Notes: generated by a model from the letters alone, not told the origin. Positions 1-14,105 are shown, counted from the stretch's first letter. The stretch: 20,000 nucleotides of DNA from an uncultured virus (IMG/VR IMGVR_UViG_3300005512_000019) (IMGVR_UViG_3300005512_000019); one strand, 5' to 3'. Made by a program: numbers and translations.

Positions 1-751
1 GAACCATCCGGCGGCAGGCCTCCAGCCGTTGGGCAAAGGTAGGGGCTCCCGGCTCAATCCTCTTGAGCAGGTCCTCATCAGATGAGATCATGGTCACGTG
101 GACGGCCGCTCCCCCCTTGTTGCTTGCCAGGGCGTCCAAGTAGGCATCCTCCCCTACAAGGGCGGACTTGGTATTGATCATCAGGGGGTAGCTGTGGAGA
201 GCCAGGTGCTGGAGCATCGCCAGGGAGGCCCCCTCCTTGCGCTCATCGTCCAGGAAGTCCTCAAACCGGATTCCAAACCGGATCGGGATGGTGTTGGCTA
301 CCGCCCGCCGGATGTCCCCTGAGAGGCTGGAGGCGTCCTTCCCCCGGCACTCCATGAGCTTGTCCAGCTCCTTCCGGTACCAGTCCGGGTTGCAGTGCCT
401 GTAGCCCATCGTCTTGCTGTTGTCAAAGAAGGCGGTGTACAGGCTAGCCCGGAAGGCGTTTGCGTAACAGTAGCGGCAGCGGAAGGGGCACACCAGCCCG
501 TCCCATACATCCAGGTTGAGTGGCATGGGGCAGGCGGCGGCTCTCACGGAGACTTCCACAAAGGAGTTGACCTCCTCCGTGTTCAGCAACCGCTCCTGCT
601 TCCGCCACTCCCCCTCAGCCAGATCAAATTGGCTGTAGTTTTTCTTGCGGCCCTTCTCCCTCACCGCATCCTGATGCCGCCTCTCCCGGAGGAGCTGGGT
701 CATGCGGGGGATCACCCGTGACACGAGGTCTCTGAGTTGCCAGTAGTCCAT
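1..751 (-). CDS. Radical SAM protein, spore-photoproduct-lyase-like (3' end runs off the window; not in ORF track)
   Basis: Manual translation from ATG 751 (TGATG overlap with the upstream stop): MDYWQLRDLVSRVIPRMTQ...AAACPMPLNLDVWDGLVCPFRCRYCYANAF...IRFGIRFEDF...LMINTKS...VHVTMISSDEDLLKRIEPGAPTFAQRLEACRRMV, open to base 1. It has CxxxCxxC plus TKS and EPGAP..RL motifs typical of SPL-like radical SAMs. Confidence 0.88.
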   Translation of the reverse strand, partial: MDYWQLRDLVSRVIPRMTQLLRERRHQDAVREKGRKKNYSQFDLAEGEWRKQERLLNTEEVNSFVEVSVRAAACPMPLNLDVWDGLVCPFRCRYCYANAFRASLYTAFFDNSKTMGYRHCNPDWYRKELDKLMECRGKDASSLSGDIRRAVANTIPIRFGIRFEDFLDDERKEGASLAMLQHLALHSYPLMINTKSALVGEDAYLDALASNKGGAAVHVTMISSDEDLLKRIEPGAPTFAQRLEACRRMV

Positions 752-1293
752 CACTCCGCTCCTCCGCTCGGGCCGTGGCCGTCCACTCCGCCGTCCGCCC
801 CAAAGGCCAGGGCGTTGACGATAGCCCTGAACACGAGCACCCTCAGCTTTTTGGAGGTGTGAAGCTGATCCATCAGCTCATCCGGCCGGGGGTAGTGGAC
901 CGTGGCGTGCGCTCCCTCGGGAGAGGCCCAACGGTACATGGCCCACATTGCCCTTGCCGCAGCCATGTGGGCGTCCCTCATCTTCTCGTGGAGCACAAAC
1001 AGGTTGTAGGTGGTCCCCCCGAGGAGGACCCGGCAACTGCGGTGATTGATCTCCGCCGGCACATGGAGCTGGGCCATACGGGCGGTGAGCTCGTCAAACT
1101 GCTCTTGGGTGCAGATGCGGTCATCATCCGAGGGGTCCGGCATGATGTAAGCGGAGGTCCCTGACTGGGGTAGCTCTTGAATGTCTGCTACCAGCTGGGA
1201 GAGGTCCCTCAACGGATCGGGCTTGGCTACCGGGGCCGGGGGCTCGGCCGTCCGGGGCGGCATCCCACATTGCTCTCTGTCTTCAGGGGTCAT
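751..1293 (-). CDS. Hypothetical protein (180 aa)
   Basis: ORF 751..1371; the preferred start is ATG 1293 (MTPEDREQ) after an AAGGAG RBS; its stop overlaps the next ATG. Confidence 0.7.
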   Translation of the reverse strand: MTPEDREQCGMPPRTAEPPAPVAKPDPLRDLSQLVADIQELPQSGTSAYIMPDPSDDDRICTQEQFDELTARMAQLHVPAEINHRSCRVLLGGTTYNLFVLHEKMRDAHMAAARAMWAMYRWASPEGAHATVHYPRPDELMDQLHTSKKLRVLVFRAIVNALAFGADGGVDGHGPSGGAE

Positions 1294-1307
1294 GTCTGGG
1301 TCTCCTT

Positions 1308-1547
1308 TCAGATCAGTCCCATTCCGGCTTCTACGGGGGGCAGGCCGATCTCCGCCCGCCCCTCCAGCCATCCAATCATCTCGTAGTTGTTAGCCTTCTC
1401 AGCGTACACGGCCCCCTCTCGGGAGAACAGGATGGCTGAGTGGTTGTCGGGAGTCCGGCCCTCAAACCGGAAGTGCTCCCGCCCCCCGTAGTGCTCATCA
1501 AGCAACTGGAGGACCCTCTCCACGTGTCCGCGTCCTTCAACGTTCAT
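1308..1547 (-). CDS. Hypothetical protein (79 aa)
   Basis: ORF 1308..1670; the preferred start is ATG 1547 (MNVEGRGH) after a GGAGGT RBS. Confidence 0.65.
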   Translation of the reverse strand: MNVEGRGHVERVLQLLDEHYGGREHFRFEGRTPDNHSAILFSREGAVYAEKANNYEMIGWLEGRAEIGLPPVEAGMGLI

Positions 1548-1563
1548 GCCTACCTCCGAAAAG

Positions 1564-1679
1564 TGGACCGGGGTGGTGGAGGGACCAAGCCATGGTACAT
1601 ATGCACCAACTCCGGGGCTCGTGGCAGGTCCTGCCCGCCTGCGTCTCTCCGGCTGGGGGTGCTCCACCACCCCGGTGAT
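1564..1679 (-). ncRNA. Candidate structured ncRNA or 5' leader closed by a perfect 15-bp stem
   Basis: ACCGGGGTGGTGGAG (1567-1581) and CTCCACCACCCCGGT (1662-1676) are perfect inverted repeats, with possible inner helices GCACC/GGTGC, CCGG/CCGG and GCAGG/CCTGC. The stem begins about 10 nt downstream of a TATAAT box and is followed by CCA-CTTTT on the minus strand. Confidence 0.5.
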
Positions 1680-1685
1680 CGCGCT

Positions 1686-1713
1686 ATTATACCTGATCAG
1701 GCATTTTCAACAA
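1686..1713 (-). promoter_or_regulatory. Sigma70-like promoter TTGTTG-N16-TATAAT
   Basis: Perfect TATAAT (1691-1686) in a GC-rich genome; weak -35; the spacer contains the palindrome CCTGATCAGG (1692-1701). Confidence 0.6.
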
Positions 1714-2656
1714 AGTCCTCCGGCAAGTGGCCGATGTTCCAGAAGAGGACCTGATGCTTCAAGTCCGGCTCGGGCTCCCGCAGCTCCTTCTCCAACCACT
1801 CCCAGGCCTTGGCGTCATACCACGGATGGGAGGGGAAGGGGGGCCGGCATTTTGAGGGGGTCGTGTACTCCCATTGGGGGTCCACCAGGCAGACCTTCAC
1901 CCCGTCCAACATGCCCCCGTCCAGCGGCACTCCGGCCTTCTCGGCTATCTTCCGCAGCTTGCGTTGGCAGTCTCCCGTCCGGCCCATCACTCCGATGATC
2001 CTACAATCACGGGCGGCTGGGTAGGTGTCGCAGTACCACAGGCCCCTGGCTAGCCCTGCAGCTACGGTCCCCGAGCCGATATTGACCACGATATCAAGCC
2101 GGATAGCCCCGTGGGTGAGGGTGGGCAGTATCTGATCAGTGAGGGTGTACTGGAGCTGGTGGGCGGTAGCCTCCACCGTCTCCTTCAGCGGCAGGCCGAG
2201 GTCCAGCAGCTCCCCTTCCTCCCCGTACTTCTTGAGGTGGAGGTTGCGGCACTCATTCCATGCCACCCGAGCCATCCCGGCTCTGATGGGCACGATCTCC
2301 GCCCCGAGGTCCCTCCACTTGCGGCGGTGGTATTGGAGGAGCGGGGGAGTGTCCCTCACGTACTGCGGGTCATAGATCACGCAGTGGAGGCCCAACTCCC
2401 TACACACCCAGGCTACCCCCCAGCCCGCCATGCTGACGGCCGTCTCCACGTAGCCAAAGTGGTGGACCCCCTGCCCGGACTTCTTCTGGATGTGATTCAG
2501 TAGTCCCCGGACCTTGCTGAATGGGGGTCCGGGATCGGGGCAGCAGAGGTCCTCCCGCTTGACCAGGACCATGTACTTTGTCCAGACCTTCCCGCCGTCC
2601 CTCGGCCGTCCGGGCATCTCATACAATTCCAAAGGTGTTCTGGTCTCCAGTCTCAT
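1697..2656 (-). CDS. PLP-dependent enzyme, fold type II (cysteine synthase/ACC deaminase/D-Cys desulfhydrase-like; phage DNA-modification type)
   Basis: VKREDL...SKVRG (putative Schiff-base Lys), SMAGWGVAWVCRELGLHCVIY, VVNIGSGT phosphate loop, HPWYDAKAW and LFWNIG; start ATG 2656 after GGAGGAG. Confidence 0.85.
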   Translation of the reverse strand: MRLETRTPLELYEMPGRPRDGGKVWTKYMVLVKREDLCCPDPGPPFSKVRGLLNHIQKKSGQGVHHFGYVETAVSMAGWGVAWVCRELGLHCVIYDPQYVRDTPPLLQYHRRKWRDLGAEIVPIRAGMARVAWNECRNLHLKKYGEEGELLDLGLPLKETVEATAHQLQYTLTDQILPTLTHGAIRLDIVVNIGSGTVAAGLARGLWYCDTYPAARDCRIIGVMGRTGDCQRKLRKIAEKAGVPLDGGMLDGVKVCLVDPQWEYTTPSKCRPPFPSHPWYDAKAWEWLEKELREPEPDLKHQVLFWNIGHLPEDFVENA

Positions 2657-3728
2657 CCCGCTCCTCCTCCGGGCCAAAGCCCGCATCGTGCATTGTATAC
2701 ATCTTGTCTGTAGTCCCCTCCATGATCCTCCGGCCTTCCTCCTGGTCCCCTACACCATCCCAAGTGCCAGCCAGTATCTCCTGTGGGTCCCTCCCCTCCT
2801 GAAGCATCCTCTTCCACGTATGAGCGTTGTAGGTGCACGGGCGGGGTACGTCAAGCCCACAGCAGGTGTTTGCTGGCTCCCGGTGGGCCTTCCCGCTGTT
2901 GACAAAGTCTGGGCACCCGATCCTCACCCCGTAGGTCTCCCCGAGCTGAAGCAGCTGGGCCAGGATCGGCCTCCACTGCTCATCCTGATTGTGGTACCAG
3001 ATGCGCTCAATGTCCACCCCGATAGCGTGGAGCCTCTTGGCCACAAAGGCGTTGAAGTGGAAGTTGTAGGTGTTGTACCGATCAATGCCGTGATCCCGTA
3101 GGAGCTGCATGGTGCTCTTGAAGTCCTCCACCGTGTGGTAGCCGGGGATGAAGGGCTCACCGTTCAAACCGTAGGGCACCCCCACATCCCGCAGGAAGGA
3201 CAGATGGGATAGCCGGAGCCGGGGCGGGGTGGTCCGGCCCCTCTCCAGTACCTCCCAATCACGGTCCAGTCCAGGGGAGACTACGGGCATCACCTGGAGG
3301 AGGCGGCGGAAGTGAGCTGACTTGATCTCCTCCATAGCCGTCTCCATCATCACCCCGGTGAAACGGGTCTGGATCACAAAGGTCCACCGCTCCTCCGTGA
3401 GTACCCGCACAAGGTCCCGCGCCACGTGATAGGTCCTCTCCGCCTCTTGGAAGGGATCGGACTTGTTGCCCAGGCGGAGGGTCTTGCGGCTAGCCAGGGC
3501 GTGTGCCAGGGGGGTCTTGGGGGTCTTGTTCTTCACCCCGGCCTGTAGCTTGCGCTGAACGTCCTCCGGGTCCGCAGGCCGGAGGTCCGTGCCCCAGGTG
3601 TGGTTCAGGTGGCGGAAGTAGCAGTGGTGGCAATCAGTCAGGCAATTCCAATAGGCATCCAGTGCAAGGGGGAGGGGGCAATACAGACAGTCACCCCGGA
3701 TGCTGAGGGCGTTCTTGAGTCTCTTCAT
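2619..3728 (-). CDS. Radical SAM protein, spore-photoproduct-lyase-like
   Basis: CPLPLALDAYWNCLTDCHHCYF (CxxxCxxC), LRLGNKSDPFQ, IQTR, LERGRTTPPRLRL, GEPFIPG, C-terminal CPDF/TCCG; start ATG 3728 after AAGGAG. Confidence 0.88.
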   Translation of the reverse strand: MKRLKNALSIRGDCLYCPLPLALDAYWNCLTDCHHCYFRHLNHTWGTDLRPADPEDVQRKLQAGVKNKTPKTPLAHALASRKTLRLGNKSDPFQEAERTYHVARDLVRVLTEERWTFVIQTRFTGVMMETAMEEIKSAHFRRLLQVMPVVSPGLDRDWEVLERGRTTPPRLRLSHLSFLRDVGVPYGLNGEPFIPGYHTVEDFKSTMQLLRDHGIDRYNTYNFHFNAFVAKRLHAIGVDIERIWYHNQDEQWRPILAQLLQLGETYGVRIGCPDFVNSGKAHREPANTCCGLDVPRPCTYNAHTWKRMLQEGRDPQEILAGTWDGVGDQEEGRRIMEGTTDKMYTMHDAGFGPEEERDETGDQNTFGIV

Positions 3729-3744: not shown

Positions 3745-3783
3745 AAAAAGAGAGGGGGCCGGGGGTTGATTCCCGGCCCCCTC
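3745..3783 (-). terminator. Rho-independent terminator
   Basis: 12-bp stem GAGGGGGCCGGG/CCCGGCCCCCTC with an 8-nt loop, followed by TCTTTTT on the minus strand, about 30 nt after the stop at 3814. Confidence 0.85.
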
Positions 3784-3813: not shown

Positions 3814-4425
3814 CTACCAGGTGAGCTTGTCGCCGTCCCGCTGCACGATCTCGAAAGCCTCAAGCAGCGGCAGGGCAATCTTGGCGTAAAACCAGGACTC
3901 TTTCATGTTGTCCCGCCCGCCGTTCTTGACGTACAGCTCGTTGGCCTTCTCCACCAGGGCGTCCACGCTCTTGCGGCAGGTCTTGTAGGCTGCTGCCTCG
4001 CAGAAGGCGGTCACACGGGTGTAACCCTTGGTGCGCTGCGTGTCCTTGGTGGCCGGGGGAGCCTTGGTGGCCGCTGCCGCCTTGGCCGGGGGAGCCTTCT
4101 TGCCGGGGACCTTCTTGGCCGGGGGCTCGGCCTCTTCCTCCGGCTCCTCGGCCTCTTCCTCGGCCTCTTCCTCGGCCTCTTCCTCGGCCTCTTCCTCGGC
4201 CTCTTCCTCCGGCTCCTCATCCGCCGGGGCCACCAGCTCCAGGGCCTCCAGAACGTCCCAGGTGGAGTCCTTCAGCTCCTCGTCACCCTGGAGGTGCTCG
4301 TTGATTGCCTCGGTCATGGAGCCCACGATGTCCTCCTGGGACCCCGTGACCACGATCTCCACACCCAGGACTTCCGCCAGGTCCTTCGCAGCCGCCACCA
4401 CTTTCGCTTTGCTCGGTTTCGCCAT
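3814..4425 (-). CDS. Acidic/basic low-complexity protein, possible nucleoid/DNA-binding protein
   Basis: Strong RBS AAGGAGGT; (EEEA)n tract followed by PAKK/KAPPA repeats; has its own promoter and terminator. The function is inferred. Confidence 0.8.
   Translation of the reverse strand: MAKPSKAKVVAAAKDLAEVLGVEIVVTGSQEDIVGSMTEAINEHLQGDEELKDSTWDVLEALELVAPADEEPEEEAEEEAEEEAEEEAEEEAEEPEEEAEPPAKKVPGKKAPPAKAAAATKAPPATKDTQRTKGYTRVTAFCEAAAYKTCRKSVDALVEKANELYVKNGGRDNMKESWFYAKIALPLLEAFEIVQRDGDKLTW
4126..4218. repeat. 12-bp coding tandem repeat (CTCGGCCTCTTC)n encoding EEEA
   Basis: About 5 contiguous copies plus one further copy and CTCCGGCTC variants, in frame. Confidence 0.9.
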
Positions 4426-4514: not shown

Positions 4515-6134
4515 TCACCAGTAGGAAGCCACCATGGGATTGCCCCGCCGGAGGTCCTGCAACAGCGTGACTTCCTCCCCGCTCCTGAGCTCCCCTTCCC
4601 GCACCAGCAGCAGACCCATCCGGGCTAGCCCTCTGCGCTCCTCGTCAGGGGTCTTTTGAATGGACACAAAGGCGGTAGCATGACTGTACTTCCGCTTGTC
4701 CTCGGAGAAGTTGGACAGGCGGAGGGAGCGGGCCTCCAGGCCGGCAGCGTCTGACTGGGTGACCGTCACTACCAGGCAGTGCTTCTCCATAGACAGGCGG
4801 CGCATAGCCTTCCAGTTGGCGTTCTGCTGATCACGGGTGGACATGTGTTCGGTCCCCGGCTCCGGGGCCAGAATGTCCGCATAGTCAATCACTACCAGGT
4901 CAGGGGTCCAGCCCTCCATTGTCTCCCAGATGTCAAGCTGGGCACGGAGGTCCGCCACGCTCATTGTCCCAGTGGGGTAGCACTCCAGGTACACATCCCG
5001 GCCCCGGAGGCGGGACTTGTTGAAGGCTCTCCCGGCCCGGAGCCCTTCCCGCCAGCTCAGGGGCTTACAAGCCGGGATGAGTTCATAGAACACGGCCCCC
5101 TCGTAGTGGGACCGCATCCGGGGGCGGCTCTGGCAGTAGCTGCAGGGGTGGTATCCGGCCGGGGCAGACTTGGCAATGTCCTCCGGGCTCGGGGGCCTCC
5201 ACCCCGCCTGCTCCTCCGGGTCCTCCGGCGGGGCTAGCTGAATGTCCAGCCTTCCAGTCCCCACCCGTTCAATCAGAGAGCACCTCCCGTCCTGGTTGTG
5301 AACGCAGTCCGCTACCGGGGAGAGGTGTTCCACACAATACTTGGGCACCCAGGACTTCCCTGACAGCCGGCAGTGGCGGCGGCGGACCATCTGCTTGCGG
5401 CTCATATCGCCCACCCCAAAGAACACCGTGTTCAGTCGGCACAGGTGACCCCTGAATTCAATCTCTGACAGCCACCAGGTCTTGCCAACCTTCTCCCGGC
5501 CGAGCCCCGCCACAAAGCCCTCCCTGATCATGTGCTCATTGAGCAGCTCCCCGGCCGCTCCGGGCAGGTACAGGATCGGCTCTGCGTCCTCCTCAAAGGC
5601 TTCATAGATGGACTCCTTGTCCGTGTAGGGGTTGATGGCTGTCACAAGGGGCTTGTGGACATGCTGATACTCGGCCACCCGTCCCTCGGCTCCCCGGAGG
5701 TTGCCCCGTGAGAGGTCTGACAGGATGTCCTCGGCCGTGGCCTTCAGGTTCATCTGCCTGAAGTGGTCCACCGTCTGATCCAGGGCGTATTCTACGTTGA
5801 ACGGGTCCCCCTCCTCATGCCGGCGGGACAGCTTGGATAGGAATGCGGCAATGAGGTCTGCCTCTGCGTCCTCCATGCCTCTGCGCCTCTCCGAGTGGAA
5901 GATGGCCTCCAGCTCGGATTTGGGGGCCTTCCCGTAGCGGGTCCAGTACTCCATGCACCAGTGGGCCACCCGTCTGACGTAGGGGGTCTCCACCAACTCC
6001 TCCCTGTAGATCGGCTCCACCTGGCGCAGGAAGCTATCGCTGACAATCATGCCAGTGAGCATCATGGTCTCAGGGAGGTTGTCCACCTTCTGGCGGGTCA
6101 CTCGGGAGGTCATCTTGGGTGGGGGCTTCTTCAT
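4515..6134 (-). CDS. dnaB: DnaB-like (SF4) replicative DNA helicase with a Cys-rich insertion
   Basis: Walker A GREKVGKT, Walker B LVVIDYAD, VVTVTQS, FSEDKRKYSHAT; ATGA-coupled to the initiator gene. Confidence 0.88.
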   Translation of the reverse strand: MKKPPPKMTSRVTRQKVDNLPETMMLTGMIVSDSFLRQVEPIYREELVETPYVRRVAHWCMEYWTRYGKAPKSELEAIFHSERRRGMEDAEADLIAAFLSKLSRRHEEGDPFNVEYALDQTVDHFRQMNLKATAEDILSDLSRGNLRGAEGRVAEYQHVHKPLVTAINPYTDKESIYEAFEEDAEPILYLPGAAGELLNEHMIREGFVAGLGREKVGKTWWLSEIEFRGHLCRLNTVFFGVGDMSRKQMVRRRHCRLSGKSWVPKYCVEHLSPVADCVHNQDGRCSLIERVGTGRLDIQLAPPEDPEEQAGWRPPSPEDIAKSAPAGYHPCSYCQSRPRMRSHYEGAVFYELIPACKPLSWREGLRAGRAFNKSRLRGRDVYLECYPTGTMSVADLRAQLDIWETMEGWTPDLVVIDYADILAPEPGTEHMSTRDQQNANWKAMRRLSMEKHCLVVTVTQSDAAGLEARSLRLSNFSEDKRKYSHATAFVSIQKTPDEERRGLARMGLLLVREGELRSGEEVTLLQDLRRGNPMVASYW

Positions 6135-8376: not shown

Positions 8377-9282
8377 TTAGTCTCCCAGCAGCTCTCTCAT
8401 CACAACGTCCGCCTCTTCCTGGGTGAGCTGCGCGGGGTCTCCCCCTCCCAGGTCTGCGGTTTCAACCTCCATGTCAAAAGCAGTCAGGTACGTGGCCAGC
8501 TTCCGGGCCTGTACGGGGGCGGTTGGGTCCTCCGCCCCGGAGTCATACATCACCGCTACTCGGGTGAAGTCTCGGAGCAGCTCCACCTGCTCCAGCTTGA
8601 ACTGGACGCCAAACGTTGCGACGGCCCCCGGCCCCAGTCTCCAAACGTCCGTGATGCCCTCAACCACCACTACCCGATCCCCCGGCACCTGGTCCAGCCC
8701 GTACAGGCAGTGCTTGTGGTCTCGGGCTTCCAGTCGTTGGGGGCAGGCCTTGTAGCGGAGGTTGGACTTGCCTGTCACATCCCTCCCCTGATAGCTGACC
8801 ACCGTCCCCCGGAAGGTGATTGGGGCTATGATCCTGAACCTGTAGTCACCGAGGGGTCCCACTCCCTGCAGGCCCCACACCCTGGCTAGGTGGTCTGGGC
8901 TGAAGTCTCGGCTTTGGAGGTAGCGGCGGTGGATCGGTCCCAGGGCTCCGGCCGTCTCGGGGAGCCGGCAGACGCTGCGGCGGCGGACGTCAATCACGGG
9001 GTCCACCGCCAGGAGGCGGCGCACGTTGTACGCCTTCAGCTCCCGGAAGGCCTCCAGCTCATCGCAGCGGAGGAGAGCCTGGACTACTCGGGCGGCGGAC
9101 TTCCCCCTGCACCTCCAACAGGTGAAGAAGTCCTTTGCCTCCGAGTAGCCCAGGTGGAATCCGGGGTCACCTGTACAGAAGGGACACTCCACGGCCACCC
9201 ACCCCTTCCGGTGGTGCTTGTGGCCCGCTGGAGCGGTGGGGATGAAGTGATCCTCACAAAACCTTCTGAAGTCAAACGCCAT
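8377..9282 (-). CDS. dnaG: DnaG-like DNA primase (Zn-finger + TOPRIM)
   Basis: CPFC...H...CWRC Zn finger; RIIAPI...VVSYQGRDV; TOPRIM VVVVEGITDV...ATFG, VMYDS, GDP. Confidence 0.88.
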   Translation of the reverse strand: MAFDFRRFCEDHFIPTAPAGHKHHRKGWVAVECPFCTGDPGFHLGYSEAKDFFTCWRCRGKSAARVVQALLRCDELEAFRELKAYNVRRLLAVDPVIDVRRRSVCRLPETAGALGPIHRRYLQSRDFSPDHLARVWGLQGVGPLGDYRFRIIAPITFRGTVVSYQGRDVTGKSNLRYKACPQRLEARDHKHCLYGLDQVPGDRVVVVEGITDVWRLGPGAVATFGVQFKLEQVELLRDFTRVAVMYDSGAEDPTAPVQARKLATYLTAFDMEVETADLGGGDPAQLTQEEADVVMRELLGD

Positions 9283-9593
9283 TAGTCTCTCTCCTTCTCC
9301 AGAATCCTACGCACCTGCTCAATTTCCTTCAAACAACCGGAGGTGTCCACCTTGAGATCAACCACCAGGCAGCGACAGTTGGGGTGCCTCGGGACGTTCT
9401 GGAAGTTGGGGGAGGAGGAGGCCGTGCGAGAGGTCCGAGCCCCGGTGATCTTGAACCTGATAGCCTTCTTGGCCCTCTCGGTGGCCTCCCGCACTATTCT
9501 CCTGATCCTCTCGGTCTTGGTCTCCGGCCGGAGGGGGAGCATGGCTGCTCCCACCCCCAGTGCGCTGACCCGGAAGAAGTCCCGCCTATTCAT
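9282..9593 (-). CDS. Small protein with a twin-arginine-like N-terminus
   Basis: MNRRDFFRVSALGVGAAML; ATGA and TAATG coupling on its two sides. Confidence 0.65.
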   Translation of the reverse strand: MNRRDFFRVSALGVGAAMLPLRPETKTERIRRIVREATERAKKAIRFKITGARTSRTASSSPNFQNVPRHPNCRCLVVDLKVDTSGCLKEIEQVRRILEKERD

Positions 9594-10476
9594 TGCCGGC
9601 CTCTCTCAGCCTGATGGCCGCACGCTTCAGGGCGTCCTTCTCCTTGGTCTCCCTCTCCACAACCTGATCCCAGGCATCCTGGTCCAGTACCTCCTTGATG
9701 GAGTCCTGAATCAGGGAGGAGAGGACCTTGGGCTCAAGGGCGTCCAGCTCCCAGGAGGTCCTCCCGTAGTTGGCAATGTACTCCGCACAGCGGGAGTCCG
9801 TGAGCTTGGCCGGATTCGGCGGCGGGTTGTAGGCGTTCACCTGATCCATTGTCAGGGCTATCCGGCGGACTTCCACCTTGGCCCCAAACGTGTTCAGGCG
9901 GTCCTGGATGTCCCGTGACATGTCCACCCCGCTCGGGTCATGGTCCCCGAGGTGAATGAGGAGGCACTGGCGGTCCATCTCCTCGGCCCTCCACCTGAAT
10001 CGGTTGGCCGCTTCATACATGGAGGTTTGAGAGACGTACCCCCGGCAACTGAAGCAGGTCACGTCCAGCGGCTGTGCGGCCTGCTGAACAACCTGAATGA
10101 GGGCGTCCTTCTCCACCCACACTTCCACGTACCAGGGCTGGGTCTCCCACTTGTTCCGGCGGTAGGAGTACACACAGGCATCCACTATCTGCTCGGGGCT
10201 GTTCCAGTGCTGGAGGCTCCGGGTGTGGCGGGTCCGATCCTGAATGGCATCCCAGTCCACCAGGCCGGCAAGGCGGGCTTTGGACAGTACCTCACCCAGC
10301 CTGTCGTAGTTGCTCTGCTTGTTGGGTAGGAAGCCCCGAGCCACAAACTGATAGTACAGCTGTCTCAGGGTCAGCTCGTAGCCCTGAGCCCGCAACTCCT
10401 CAATGATCTCATTGGCGGTGTTGATGGTCTCCAGGGTCTTGTCGGTAAAGTTGGTTGGTACAAAGCACTTCTTCAC
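9586..10476 (-). CDS. Topoisomerase VI subunit A/Spo11-like protein (WH + TOPRIM)
   Basis: LTLRQLYYQ (putative catalytic Tyr helix), VEVWVEKDAL, RGYVS, HLGDHDPSG (DxD), RIALT, WELDAL. Confidence 0.8.
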   Translation of the reverse strand: MKKCFVPTNFTDKTLETINTANEIIEELRAQGYELTLRQLYYQFVARGFLPNKQSNYDRLGEVLSKARLAGLVDWDAIQDRTRHTRSLQHWNSPEQIVDACVYSYRRNKWETQPWYVEVWVEKDALIQVVQQAAQPLDVTCFSCRGYVSQTSMYEAANRFRWRAEEMDRQCLLIHLGDHDPSGVDMSRDIQDRLNTFGAKVEVRRIALTMDQVNAYNPPPNPAKLTDSRCAEYIANYGRTSWELDALEPKVLSSLIQDSIKEVLDQDAWDQVVERETKEKDALKRAAIRLREAGNE

Positions 10477-11560: not shown

Positions 11561-13525
11561 CTATGCTGCTTCCTCGTCATTCTCGTCAGAGTATCGGGCC
11601 AGGAGGGCGGAGAGCATGCTGCTCTCGTCAACGTCCTGCCCATCCAAGACGGCCGTCAGCACCACCCGCTTCTCATCCAGCAGCTCAGCAATCTCCTCCT
11701 CCACCGTCCGATCCGCCAGCAGGTAGTAGGCTGTCACACTGTCGGCCGTCTGACCGATGCGGTGCACCCGATCCTCTGCCTGGTCGTGCTCTCCGGGGGT
11801 CCAGCCGATCTCGACAAAGGCGGTACAGGAGGCGGCTGTCAGGGTCAGTCCCACGCCTGCGGCCTTGATGTTGCCGAGAAACAGCCTGATCTCCGGGTCC
11901 TTCTGGAAGGCGTCCACTGCAGCCTGACGGGCGGGCTTGGCCGTCCGGCCGTCCACCTTGACGCACTGTCCTTCAAAGGCCTCTGCCAGGTCATCCAGAC
12001 ACTTGTGATGAACCCCAAACACCACCAGCTTCTCCCCGGAGGAGAGGAAGTCCTCAATCCATTCGATGCAGGCGTTGATCTTGCCCGTGTAGGCCAGCTG
12101 CTTGAGGTGCTCAATCCTGACCAGTGCCTCGGCCGTCATAGCCTTCTTGGCCGCTTCCTCCCCCTTCTTGCCCCACAGCCACTTGATGAAGTTGTCCTGC
12201 GCGGCCTGGTAGGCATTCCGGTTTTCCAGTTCCATCGGTACAACCACCCGAGTCTTGGGCGGTAGCTCCTTGGCCACGTCAACCTTCAGGCGGCGGAGGA
12301 GGATGGACTTGGTCAGCTGGGCGTTGAGCTCCTTGGTGTTGGAGGCCCCGGAGAAGTCCCACCCATAGCCGTTGCGGCGGGCGTTGCAATACTTCCGGGC
12401 AAAGGCCCAGAAGTCCGGGTACAGGTCCGGGTCCACCAGCTGAATGGGGGTGAAGAATTCAATGGGCCTGTTCGTGATGGGGGTCCCCGAGAGGGCTATG
12501 CAGTGGGGAGCGGCCTGGGACAGTTCCAGGCAGGCCTTGCTGCGCTTGGTCTTGGGGTTCTTTGCGTAGTGGACCTCATCAAAAATGACCACGCTCGGCT
12601 TCATCTTCTTGAGCTGCTTCTCCCAGTAGGGTAGGATGTCGTAGTTGATGACGATGATCTTGCCCTTGATGAAGTACGGGGTCCGGCCTTCCACCTGTTC
12701 CACCTGCGGATCGGCCAGCCACTTCTCGGCCTCCCGCTGCCAGTTGAGCTTGAGGGAGGCGGGGACCACGATCACTGCCGGCCGGAAGTCCGGGTGCAGC
12801 TGAAGGTAGGCCAGGGCCTGGACCGTCTTGCCCAGCCCCATCTCGTCACCGATGAAGGCCCGCCCGTTGCGGGTCTCAATGAAGGCCACCCCGCTGTCCT
12901 GGAAGGGGCGGAGGGTCCCGAGGAGGCCGGGGATGTCGATGTGATCCGGGGCCGGGGCTGTCTTGGACTCAAACCACGCCATCAGATTGGGGGTCAGGGG
13001 GAAGCCCAAGTCAAGGAGGCTCTGGACGTTTTCCAGGCTGAGTTTCGCTGACCAGCCCGCTCCCGATCCGTTGCGCTTCTCAAACATGCGGTCATGGAGG
13101 CGGGTCTTGACGTCCGAGACCAGCTGGGCATCCCAGTCAAACCTGATCCAGATGCGCCCAGCCTTCTCCTTGTCCAGCTCGGCCGTCTTGGGGCTAGCCG
13201 GGGCCTGGGGCCTGGGGCTCTTGGGCTGATAGGACTTGATGGGCAGGGGCTCCAGGTCCTCCGGTATCTGGCGGTGGTACTTCTGGAGCTTGCGGATGCA
13301 GAGGGCCAGCTGCTTCTCGGTCAGATAGCCCCGGCTCCGGTAGAACACTGCGAATGAGCTCAGAATCTCCGAGTCACAGGCGTTGAAGCCAATGTCGTTG
13401 AGGTGGGCCGTGAAGCCGGCATTCTGCTCATCCCGAGTCTGGCAGGAGTACAGGAACATCAGAGCCGCAACGGCAAACTCCGGCTCCCCCTTGATGCGCT
13501 CTTGAATTGTGAGTGTTGTGGTCAT
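11561..13525 (-). CDS. SNF2-family (SF2) helicase/ATPase, HARP/SMARCAL1-like, with an extra N-terminal domain
   Basis: LRPFQ, GDEMGLGKT, VVPASLKLNW, DEVH, LSGTPITN, LRRLK, AGVGLTLT, QAEDRVHRIGQ. Confidence 0.93.
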   Translation of the reverse strand: MTTTLTIQERIKGEPEFAVAALMFLYSCQTRDEQNAGFTAHLNDIGFNACDSEILSSFAVFYRSRGYLTEKQLALCIRKLQKYHRQIPEDLEPLPIKSYQPKSPRPQAPASPKTAELDKEKAGRIWIRFDWDAQLVSDVKTRLHDRMFEKRNGSGAGWSAKLSLENVQSLLDLGFPLTPNLMAWFESKTAPAPDHIDIPGLLGTLRPFQDSGVAFIETRNGRAFIGDEMGLGKTVQALAYLQLHPDFRPAVIVVPASLKLNWQREAEKWLADPQVEQVEGRTPYFIKGKIIVINYDILPYWEKQLKKMKPSVVIFDEVHYAKNPKTKRSKACLELSQAAPHCIALSGTPITNRPIEFFTPIQLVDPDLYPDFWAFARKYCNARRNGYGWDFSGASNTKELNAQLTKSILLRRLKVDVAKELPPKTRVVVPMELENRNAYQAAQDNFIKWLWGKKGEEAAKKAMTAEALVRIEHLKQLAYTGKINACIEWIEDFLSSGEKLVVFGVHHKCLDDLAEAFEGQCVKVDGRTAKPARQAAVDAFQKDPEIRLFLGNIKAAGVGLTLTAASCTAFVEIGWTPGEHDQAEDRVHRIGQTADSVTAYYLLADRTVEEEIAELLDEKRVVLTAVLDGQDVDESSMLSALLARYSDENDEEAA

Positions 13526-13535
13526 TGCGGGGCTC

Positions 13536-14105
13536 CTATATGCGTGCGGCGGTTGTCTTCAACTCTGCCATGACTTCCCAGATGCGTTTCCACTTCCATC
13601 CCTCGGCTCGGAGATACCTCTGGAGGATGCCCCGGATGATCTTGGGGGGCTGGGCTCCCAGGTCCCGGAGGGCCTCCACTGGAGCGTTGAGGAGGAGGTC
13701 CAGGATGTACCTGGCGTCATCACTCAATCCGCTCCTGAGCTCCACCACCCGCATGTGTTGGTAGGGTCCGTCACTCCTGTGGTCCGGCACGATCTCCTCC
13801 AGGACGGCTTCCCCGAGGTCCGGGGGGAGGTCGTTGTGCTGCGTGTAGTCAATCAGGCCCTGGTTCAAGAGCCGATAAAGCCACGTGCTGAATTTGGCTC
13901 CCCTGTTGGGATCGTAGGAGTGGAAGGCCTCCATGAAGATACCCTCACAGACTCCCATCAGCTCGGTGAAGTCATGGCCAGTTGTTTCCCGGAAGGACCA
14001 GCTGCGGGCGCACATCATTGCGTAGGTTGCGTCATACAGCTTCTGAGCCCGTCCTTCGGTGACCACCCGCCGGATCGTGTGCTGCGTGTTCCGGTCCTTG
14101 GTCAT
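13536..14105 (-). CDS. Phage-encoded sigma-70-family factor
   Basis: Region-2-like DFTELM...FMEAFHSYDPNRGAKFSTWLYRLLNQGLIDY, and LSDDARYIL resembling the start of region 4. Confidence 0.78.
   Translation of the reverse strand: MTKDRNTQHTIRRVVTEGRAQKLYDATYAMMCARSWSFRETTGHDFTELMGVCEGIFMEAFHSYDPNRGAKFSTWLYRLLNQGLIDYTQHNDLPPDLGEAVLEEIVPDHRSDGPYQHMRVVELRSGLSDDARYILDLLLNAPVEALRDLGAQPPKIIRGILQRYLRAEGWKWKRIWEVMAELKTTAARI

Follow-up and report, generated by a model that had tools for sequence, protein, structure and literature searches.

The first 3,728 nucleotides of a 20,000-nucleotide stretch of DNA from an uncultured virus (IMG/VR IMGVR_UViG_3300005512_000019), a stretch that we refer to in its entirety as the window, carry genes for two proteins with the hallmarks of radical S-adenosylmethionine (SAM) enzymes, here designated rSAM1 and rSAM2, together with a gene for a pyridoxal 5′-phosphate (PLP)-dependent enzyme and two small open reading frames (ORFs). 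All genes of the window reside on the minus strand, and transcription proceeds from a DnaB-like helicase gene through the gene for an acidic protein, a hairpin, rSAM2, the PLP enzyme, and the two small ORFs to rSAM1 (Table 1). A prior interpretation made from the DNA sequence by itself, hereafter the sequence-only reading, had described these five genes as a putative DNA hypermodification cluster, and all five were confirmed; they lie on the minus strand. The same reading had located the cluster after the replication module, and on this point it requires revision: the genes lie inside that module, with the DnaB-like helicase on one side and clamp and polymerase genes on the other.

Table 1. 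Coordinates of the module and its immediate neighbors within the window
Feature	Coordinates	Strand	Details
rSAM2, 369 aa	2619-3728	minus	CxxxCxxC at residues 35-42, encoded at ~3621-3644; pre-motif YCPLPL; C-terminal GCPDF...NTCCG
rSAM1, N-terminal 250 of 474 residues	2-751/754, cut by window edge	minus	CxxxCxxC encoded at ~467-490; pre-motif ACPMPLN just before it
Fold-type II PLP enzyme	1697-2656	minus	PALP, 47.1 bits against a cut-off of 35; phrog_7093, E 1.2e-41
Larger orphan ORF, 180-206 aa	751-1293 (open to 1371; start uncertain, near 1293)	minus	Third-position GC 0.72-0.85 in frame
Smaller orphan ORF, ~79 aa	1308-1547 (open to 1670; likely start near 1547)	minus	Third-position GC 0.77-0.79 over ~1375-1525
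Terminator-like hairpin	3752-3783	minus	Stem of 12 base pairs (11 G-C) with a T run after it; separates the start of rSAM2 from the acidic-protein gene
Acidic low-complexity protein, 203 aa, cluster c2	3814-4425	minus	Pfam, PHROG, and NCBIfam matches weak and low-complexity
DnaB-like replicative helicase	4515-6134	minus	phrog_19, E 9.7e-23; position conserved in relatives; upstream border of the module slot

Two radical SAM paralogs and a PLP enzyme

The rSAM2 ORF is open to position 3746 if a TTG start is allowed, and the ATG at position 3728 is likely to be the true start. We prefer this ATG, which had also been chosen previously, because the hairpin at positions 3783-3752 overlaps the TTG extension and because a database copy of rSAM2 is 369 aa in length. 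Six cysteines of the protein (C23, C35, C39, C42, C295, and C296) are invariant in 39 sequences, the CxxxCxxC motif being present in 39 of 39 homologs, and the C-terminal GCPDF...NTCCG motif could bind an auxiliary Fe-S cluster. The portion of rSAM1 that is cut off by the window edge is supplied by L079, a 4.9-kb metagenome contig that shows 2 mismatches in 3930 bases relative to the window and reaches 960 bases past it. Full-length rSAM1 (L079:287-1711, minus strand) is a protein of 474 aa, and the three cysteines of its CxxxCxxC motif are invariant in 31 of 31 homologs. The contig continues for 290 bases past rSAM1 and ends within a small, unrelated ORF, short of the genes found downstream in relatives; a 96-aa open ORF after rSAM1 in this contig matches no Pfam family. 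An exact-match search of a viral contig collection with the window returned no match.

The Pfam profile Radical_SAM (PF04055) matches rSAM2 under its gathering score (E 0.0045, 17.6 bits) and the truncated rSAM1 likewise under the cut-off (E 1.4e-5, 25.8 bits), and it matches a full-length relative of rSAM1 at 37.6 bits, over the cut-off of 29.5. Both proteins also match the PHROG family phrog_13321 (rSAM2, E 1.6e-9; rSAM1, E 1.8e-10). Judged by the cluster motif together with the superfamily profile, rSAM1 and rSAM2 are members of the radical SAM superfamily. The NCBIfam families Rv2578c and PA0069 are matched weakly by both proteins, with 26-42 bits against cut-offs of 360-700 (E 5e-11 and 3e-10; the rSAM2 match to the Rv2578c family, at E 5e-11, is far under the cut-off), and on these profile scores the two proteins are related to the Rv2578c and PA0069 families and are not members of them. 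At E <= 0.1, no spore photoproduct lyase (SPL) model is among the NCBIfam matches of either protein, and no solved structure, SPL included, is matched by either sequence profile. When the rSAM2 profile was compared with solved structures at E <= 10, the rows returned were at chance level only.

A pre-motif, CP(L/M)PL, the Cys and Pro of which do not vary in either family, precedes the cluster motif in both proteins. Alignment of the two family profiles with hhalign covers 272 columns with 23% identity (probability 99.6%, E 1.2e-24), and the aligned stretch spans the region from the pre-motif to a C-terminal CC motif common to both. This profile-profile alignment indicates that rSAM1 and rSAM2 are real, old, and diverged paralogs, a relationship that had been suggested previously from the shared pre-motif. 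The radical SAM enzyme gp53 of Pseudomonas phage M6 aligns with the rSAM2 profile at a probability of 97.3% (E 2e-11, 21% identity) and with the rSAM1 profile at 86.8% (E 4e-6, 21% identity), which is consistent with distant homology. The family phrog_13321 is common to rSAM1, rSAM2, and gp53, and gp53's own family, phrog_9252, is matched by neither rSAM. Many proteins of ~400 aa score alike against the rSAM1 and rSAM2 profiles and weakly against gp53, and the pair belongs to a large, uncharacterized SPL-like clade.

Four related phage loci (L020, L021, L062, and L068) carry Hint-type inteins in rSAM1, with rSAM1 ORFs of 612-622 aa and additional Hint-bearing ORFs upstream. Inteins typically reside in proteins that are important to phage. 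The rSAM1 inteins also recall an NCBIfam model for intein-containing radical SAM proteins of the Rv2578c family.

The ORF of the PLP enzyme is open to position 2686, and alignment with relatives places its likely start at 2656. Its profile matches PDB structures of the IlvA, TrpB, and ACC-deaminase type, and the PF00291 score over the cut-off, the Schiff-base lysine, and the glycine-rich loop identify it, by these sequence criteria, as a fold-type II enzyme. The protein is 32% identical to M6 gp52 (E 4e-34, 96% coverage) and conserves the GSGT loop. An invariant lysine within FSKxRG, K58 (numbered from the 2686 start), aligns with K36 of gp52, the probable aldimine lysine of that enzyme according to the M6 study (Lee et al., 2021; PMC8989533), and is a candidate for the same role. 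By homology, the PLP enzyme is a relative of the gp52-type PLP decarboxylase, and decarboxylase activity is predicted. The kinship with M6 enzymes that the sequence-only reading had suggested holds directly for the PLP enzyme and at a distance for the two radical SAM proteins. Homologs of the PLP enzyme occur in 67 GenBank phage records, all at <60% identity and all from M6/YuA-like or similar siphoviruses; ViI, to which the cluster had also been compared, is not among them. In annotated M6/YuA-like records, the homologous gene adjoins those for an amino acid:DNA transferase, a radical SAM enzyme, and a kinase.

Third-position GC content favors coding in the frames of both small ORFs that lie between the PLP gene and rSAM1. 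Neither has a homolog in 68 related loci or a match to a Pfam, PHROG, or NCBIfam family, and for the larger of the two, a collection of 5.8 billion proteins holds no homolog at E <= 0.001, the Atlas gives no usable match, and the structural model is of low confidence. These ORFs are variable, lineage-specific inserts. The possibility that they encode an M6-type transferase was considered and rejected, as they have no similarity to M6 gp51. The differences between L079 and the window are at positions 753 and 2072, of which the former alters the overlap of the 206-aa ORF stop with the rSAM1 start, such that the small ORF comprises 219 aa in L079.

The module in related phage loci

A viral contig collection was searched with rSAM2, rSAM1, and c1, a protein encoded downstream of rSAM1 in relatives, yielding ~150 loci. 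After deduplication, 70 of these hold both rSAM genes, and rSAM2 precedes rSAM1 in 70 of the 70. The two genes are nearly adjacent in 13 loci. Between or just before them lies a cassette whose content varies: a PLP enzyme gene is found in 34 loci, an aldo-keto reductase (AKR) in 13, c7 in 10, DUF362 in 7, c12 and c8 in 5 each, and a flavin (FAD) enzyme in 4, and no cassette gene was detected in 12. The protein c7 resembles class I methyltransferases by an Atlas lead alone, c12 is weakly methyltransferase-like, and c8 has no assigned kind. An amidoligase occupies the slot in one relative, and DNA methyltransferases are found beside it in several. In one further locus (L058:8326-8766), a gene for a T4 endonuclease V-like pyrimidine-dimer glycosylase (Pyr_excise, E 5.9e-15) is situated between rSAM2 and the PLP gene, and this is the sole hint toward UV repair among the cassettes.

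Set against the presence of the PLP gene in 34 of 70 loci, the order seen in 70 of 70 indicates that the rSAM pair is the invariant core of the module and that the PLP enzyme is optional. The notion that the second radical SAM enzyme is an add-on to an M6-like pathway, as put forward in the sequence-only reading, is not compatible with this distribution. The flavin enzyme present in 4 of the 70 relatives is a homolog of gp47 from phage PaMx11 (27% identity, E 8e-24, 85% coverage), and the 20 phage records that it matches are all PaMx11-type or similar. With gp52-like and gp47-like enzymes both found in this position, two independent tailoring enzymes of DNA-linked glycine share the slot. Loci that lack both rSAM genes have other genes at the corresponding position: a gene at L156:4710-5855, which lies between those for the helicase and c1, encodes a TET-associated glycosyltransferase (PF20691, E 5e-40), and the neighborhood of L151 has two N6/N4 DNA methyltransferases. 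The slot thus holds kinds of enzymes that shape amino-acid adducts on DNA, with the rSAM pair as its constant occupant, and this pattern suggests that it is a DNA-modification slot.

Three further genes, for c0, a tiny peptide, and c1, follow rSAM1 in 62 of the 62 relatives with enough downstream DNA; they would lie outside the window and were seen in relatives rather than in this phage. No Pfam family is matched by c0 (~260 aa; L027:12386-13222 and 31 other related loci), and its structural model, with a predicted local distance difference test score (pLDDT) of 84, matches PCNA (Foldseek E 1e-10, template modeling (TM) score ~0.5), so that c0 is modeled as a PCNA-like protein. A beta-clamp-like factor is encoded two genes further on, and relatives would accordingly carry two clamp-type proteins. 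The tiny ORF between c0 and c1, which overlaps the 3′ end of c0 in some loci, encodes 44-70 aa (for example L010:14037-14195, L017:14369 onward, and L027:13122 onward) and exists in 38 distinct versions with a near-invariant 16-residue head (MGGKSRKSGGVS). Beyond the near-invariant head MGGKSRKSGGVSKKLI, the tail is lysine-rich and often ends in an LF/FF-type motif, and the peptide could be a clamp-binding or scaffold peptide.

The third protein, c1 (~265 aa, soluble; L027:13246-14061 and 29 other loci), is predicted to adopt a tandem-GNAT fold (model pLDDT 93.4). Its model matches L-PGS, A-PGS, MprF, a DUF2156 structure (2hqy), Sbb17, and FemX (E 8e-9 to 5e-7, TM 0.51-0.66), its alignment profile matches 2hqy at E 0.0011, weak matches to PF09924 were also found, and a precomputed PF09924 assignment exists for some members of the 448-protein c1 family. 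On these structural models, c1 is likely to resemble aminoacyl-tRNA-dependent transferases. The tandem-GNAT fold is a likeness to the C-terminal domain of MprF/aaPGS, DUF2156, FemX, and Sbb17, whereas c1 is soluble, has no membrane domain, and is phage-encoded beside clamp genes. The beta-clamp-like gene and a polymerase gene come after c1. In a search seeded with c1, 65 loci had sufficient room upstream, and 62 of these carry c0 and both rSAM genes there. The status of c1 as a proven part of the module was rejected, given that it also occurs beside the clamp gene in 3 loci without the rSAM pair.

On the other side of the module, 29 of 40 related loci retain the acidic protein c2 in its place next to rSAM2, on the side of the DnaB-like helicase; it is a conserved neighbor whose link to the module is one of position. 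GAG/GAA-rich repeats at window positions 4066-4203 encode an (EEEA)n acidic tract in this 203-aa protein. When the first 8 kb of the window were compared with GenBank phages at the nucleotide level, matches were found solely in the acidic gene (mycobacteriophages Muddy and Eaglepride) and were of low complexity. The hairpin that separates this gene from rSAM2 implies that the module may be transcriptionally separate from the upstream genes, and its sequence suggests a transcriptional boundary or attenuator before the module. The scan that detected it was based on a terminator consensus only and returned 5 sites in 4.7 kb where 3.3 are expected, among which the stem at 3752-3783 is by far the strongest.

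Beyond these genes, the window comprises a phage early/replication region with genes for a primase, an SNF2 helicase, a sigma-factor-like protein, and a member of phrog_6247, annotated as "topoisomerase". The last of these, a 296-aa protein (9586-10476, minus strand), matches phrog_6247 "DNA topoisomerase" at E 4e-108 and no Pfam family, and an adjoining 103-aa ORF (9282-9593, minus strand) has faint DNA polymerase A-like matches. The sigma-70 region 2-like protein (13536-14105, minus strand, E 1e-6) is encoded directly upstream of the 654-aa SNF2-family helicase (11561-13525, minus strand), a pairing found again in the complete relative G001.

The collection of 5.8 billion proteins contains 452 clusters of rSAM2 homologs, every one of them of metagenome or uncultured origin, and 448 of c1 homologs. 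These homologs are named "hypothetical" or "DNA repair photolyase" only, and contigs of up to ~112 kb are found among the best 120 matches listed. Searches of GenBank phage records with tblastn gave no match for rSAM2 (50,697 records), no match for c1, and one weak match, at 25% identity, for rSAM1, and they yielded no cultured representative. Among 185,579 species genomes, rSAM1 is present in 5 metagenome-assembled contigs, which belong to five different phyla, and thus no host can be inferred.

Comparison with known hypermodification pathways

All characterized thymidine hypermodifications of which we are aware begin with the formation of 5-hydroxymethyl-deoxyuridine (5-hmdU) at the nucleotide level, followed by activation by a kinase, and remodeling of a DNA base adduct by a radical SAM enzyme has to our knowledge been demonstrated only for M6 gp53. 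In the M6 pathway leading to 5-(2-aminoethyl)-deoxyuridine (5-NedU), as set out in the published account, gp58 is a thymidylate synthase (TS)-like hydroxymethylase, gp54/gp55 is a 5-hmdU DNA kinase, and gp51 is an amino acid:DNA transferase that attaches glycine to 5-phosphomethyl-dU in DNA (PMC8989533). The resulting N-alpha-glycinylthymine (N-alpha-GlyT) is converted to C-alpha-GlyT by the radical SAM isomerase gp53, for which ~9 Fe per protein was taken to represent two clusters, and C-alpha-GlyT is then decarboxylated in DNA by gp52 to give 5-NedU (PMC8989533). The reported masses are 315 u for C-alpha-GlyT and 271 u for 5-NedU. The same source assigns the PaMx11 pathway to 5-aminomethyl-dU (5-NmdU) and acetylaminomethyl-dU to the transferase gp46, the flavin-dependent lyase gp47, whose substrate is N-alpha-GlyT, the acetyltransferase gp48, and the kinase gp49 (PMC8989533, Table 1).

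The module resembles that of M6 in possessing a gp52-type PLP enzyme with the same lysine, in the adjacency of rSAM and PLP genes, in having SPL-like rSAMs of gp53's phrog_13321 with an extra C-terminal cysteine motif, and in its occurrence in siphovirus genomes of ~60-90 kb. It differs in that relatives carry the module without hydroxymethylase, kinase, or transferase, in having two rSAM paralogs where M6 has one, at 21% identity to gp53, in the optional nature of the PLP enzyme (34/70), and in its location between helicase and clamp genes. With PaMx11, the likeness consists of the gp47 homolog in the tailoring slot of 4 of 70 relatives, the window itself having no gp47-like gene, whereas the gp47-like enzyme of those relatives is paired with an aldo-keto reductase rather than with an acetyltransferase, kinase, and transferase. 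The SPL/COG1533 proteins, among them Rv2578c and PA0069, share with rSAM1 and rSAM2 a radical SAM core, a CxxxCxxC motif near the N-terminus, and the existence of intein-bearing members; in contrast, the proteins described here score 32-42 bits against family cut-offs of 360-430, form an obligate paralog pair, are confined to phage-sized contigs, and have no sequence match to solved structures.

Families corresponding to the starter enzymes of the 5-hmdU route were sought in the window and in relatives. The 28 ORFs of the window include no Pfam match to a thymidylate-synthase-like, 5-HMUDK, or ADDT family, and none of the 68 related loci gave a tblastn match to M6 gp51, gp54, or gp58. Among whole relative records, four of which are at least 94% complete by the estimate of the collection, the TS-like dUMP hydroxymethylase family (PF00303) was found in 0 of 5 and the aGPT-Pplase amino acid:DNA transferase family (PF18724) in 0 of 9, and the count for each of the 5-hmdU DNA kinase families PF18748 and PF18723 was 0 of 4, in relatives whose genomes are complete or nearly so. 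M6 served as a positive control for PF18724 (E 2e-48), PF18748 (E 1e-19), and PF18723 (E 1e-57). A Pfam pass over the 113 ORFs of the complete 78-kb relative G001, a siphovirus that encodes an SNF2 helicase, the module, HU, a uracil-DNA glycosylase (UDG)-PolA fusion, RecA, flap endonuclease (FEN), ligase, SbcCD-like proteins, and MazG, likewise found none of the starter families. The sequence-only reading had looked to the DNA beyond the module for an aGPT-Pplase2 transferase, a 5-hmU DNA kinase, and a dUMP hydroxymethylase, and in the relatives searched there are none. Its M6-type interpretation is thus supported in the homology of the PLP enzyme to gp52 and the distant homology of the rSAMs to gp53, and is not supported in the remainder of the pathway. 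A six-frame search identified ThyX (PF02511, E 2.5e-37) in G001 (G001:C1:69571-70176; L165), beside or overlapping a MazG-domain ORF, so that the G001 phage makes dTMP; the other four of the 5 relative records are without it.

A full-text literature search, whose scope was article text rather than the supplements of M6/PaMx11-type papers, found no description of a kinase-free module with two radical SAM enzymes. It returned the M6, ViI, and PaMx11 papers, along with a structural study from 2024 and a study from 2026 on diaminopropane-modified thymine, neither of which describes the module in the portions available. Lee et al. (2021; PMC8989533) seeded their metagenome survey on 5-HMUDK, and a kinase-free type of module would therefore have been missed.

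Interpretation and alternatives

The interpretation toward which we lean, with moderate confidence, is that these genes constitute a DNA hypermodification module that uses a route other than that through 5-hmdU, with the rSAM pair at its core. Four observations point in this direction. The gp52-like and gp47-like tailoring enzymes are specifically homologous to enzymes that act on DNA-linked glycine; the only characterized relatives of the rSAMs act on DNA; the module is surrounded by replisome genes and occupies a position that is otherwise taken by DNA-modifying genes; and complete relatives have none of the known starter enzymes. Gene content, homologies, paralogy, gene order, and the lack of starter enzymes in relatives are direct observations, whereas DNA as substrate, the base targeted, and each chemical step are inferred. 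According to this proposal, the module would modify the bases of the phage's own DNA after replication, bypassing 5-hydroxymethyl-dU. The rSAM pair would make or rearrange an amino-acid-like side chain with a free alpha-amine on a DNA base, for which the C5-methyl group of thymine is our best guess, and in this phage the gp52-like PLP enzyme might then remove the carboxylate to leave an aminoalkyl group. The tailoring enzyme situated between or beside the rSAMs would be exchangeable, being gp52-like here and gp47-like with an AKR, methyltransferase-like, a DUF362 protein, or an amidoligase in relatives.

Several considerations weigh against this proposal. The similarity of the rSAMs to gp53 is distant and approximately equal to that with the bacterial Rv2578c/PA0069 families, and the rSAM2 profile matches 3423 cluster representatives at E <= 0.001, which makes the family a large and functionally open one. 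The absence of starter enzymes pertains to the genomes of relatives and to the 20-kb window, and this phage may carry such genes elsewhere; moreover, the ORF-based Pfam pass over G001 missed ThyX and so was not exhaustive, and a search for Tet/JBP, which gave 0 of 5 relative records, is uninformative because no positive control rang. The PLP gene is absent from 36 of 70 loci, and decarboxylation therefore is not essential to the module. Because all relatives represent one syntenic phage lineage, their conserved gene order carries less weight than would an independent co-occurrence of the genes. In the same vein, c1 adjoins the clamp gene without any rSAM in 3 of 65 loci, where two DNA methyltransferases or a TET-associated glycosyltransferase are present instead, and its tie to the rSAMs may thus be one of synteny only. 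Finally, c1 and the tiny peptide could equally indicate a peptide or small-molecule product.

A more specific version of the hypermodification proposal, which we advance tentatively and regard as rather unlikely in its full form, is that the rSAM pair initiates hypermodification by direct action on a canonical base of duplex DNA that has not been activated, with delivery by c1 and the PCNA-like protein and with swappable finishing enzymes. The most plausible first step would be hydrogen abstraction at the thymine C5-methyl group, followed by C-C or C-N coupling to an amino acid. SPL-type active sites handle a radical at the thymine C5-methyl. In such a scheme, c1, with its DUF2156/FemX-like character, would deliver the amino acid from aminoacyl-tRNA, and the extra PCNA-like protein would provide a DNA-bound platform. 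The hydroxymethylase, kinase, and pyrophosphate-displacing transferase that all known pathways use would be unnecessary, and variety in the final group would come from the PLP, flavin, reductase, and methyltransferase enzymes.

Alternatively, the module might not modify DNA and might instead make a modified peptide, or a small molecule whose scaffold is a peptide or an amino acid, as in the pathways for ribosomally synthesized and post-translationally modified peptides (RiPPs) or pearlins. The tiny peptide (MGGKSRKSGGVS...) would then be the substrate or scaffold, c1 would add an amino acid from aminoacyl-tRNA, the rSAMs and the PLP, flavin, reductase, and methyltransferase enzymes would tailor the product, and a basic product could be a DNA-condensing or internal virion component. 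The model of c1 (pLDDT 93.4), with its matches to aminoacyl-tRNA-dependent transferases, 2hqy, and PF09924, is in keeping with such a role, as is the tiny ORF with a near-invariant head that occurs in 38 versions between c0 and c1, and a set of PLP, FAD, AKR, methyltransferase-like, and amidoligase enzymes is also typical of natural-product pathways. We nevertheless consider this alternative unlikely. The rSAMs are of the SPL/COG1533 kind, whose only characterized relatives act on DNA, and Pfam scans of the two proteins detected no SPASM, twitch, or RRE domain. Among all GenBank phages, the PLP and flavin enzymes are closest to enzymes that tailor DNA adducts, and the module adjoins genes for a PCNA-like protein, a clamp, and a polymerase; c0, c1, and the tiny peptide, moreover, were seen in relatives, outside the window.

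Less probable again is an action of the module on free nucleotides, on RNA or tRNA, or in other metabolism, such as the production of a modified dNTP before replication, with the likeness to M6 and PaMx11 reflecting common amino-acid chemistry only. The size of the rSAM family, most of whose members are uncharacterized (3423 representatives at E <= 0.001), leaves room for this view, a MazG-like pyrophosphohydrolase and ThyX are encoded by the complete relative G001, and a DNA substrate is not proven by sequence. However, no genes for a nucleotide kinase, nucleotidyl transferase, TS-like enzyme, or deaminase accompany the module in the annotated complete relative, the module is embedded among replisome genes, and the closest characterized homologs act on polymer DNA.

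We give little credence to the idea that the rSAMs are repair enzymes of the SPL kind that act on UV lesions in densely packed phage DNA, with the PLP enzyme as unrelated cargo. Source databases name the homologs "DNA repair photolyase", a Pyr_excise gene (E 5.9e-15) is present in the cassette of one relative, and the location is one among replication and repair genes. Set against this are the profile searches, in which no NCBIfam SPL model appeared at E <= 0.1, Rv2578c and PA0069 fell far under their cut-offs, and no solved structure, SPL included, was matched at E <= 0.1. A repair function would also leave unexplained both the obligate pairing of the paralogs and the recurrence of gp52-like, gp47-like, reductase, and methyltransferase-like genes in the cassette. 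Least probable is the arrangement closest to the sequence-only reading, an M6/ViI-type 5-hmdU cluster in which the hydroxymethylase, kinase, and transferase are encoded elsewhere in the genome and the second rSAM adds an extra step: the PLP homology to gp52 and the rSAM homology to gp53 fit it, and genes outside the 20 kb could exist in this phage, but whole relative records lack PF00303 (0/5), PF18724 (0/9), PF18748 (0/4), and PF18723 (0/4), M6 gp51, gp54, and gp58 have no tblastn match in 68 related loci, the families are absent from the window, and one complete relative encodes ThyX, a dTMP synthase.

Should the product of these genes prove to be a peptide or metabolite, the module would represent an unusual phage-encoded biosynthetic pathway embedded in replisome genes. 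If the hypermodification proposal is correct, the module would instead constitute a second, radical-based entry into DNA base hypermodification, with two radical SAM enzymes at its center. Such an entry would widen the known chemistry of DNA, with new DNA chemistries that resist restriction and CRISPR, and would explain a large unannotated family now labeled "DNA repair photolyase". The module is widespread: on phage-sized contigs, rSAM2-like proteins form ~450 clusters, as do c1-like proteins.

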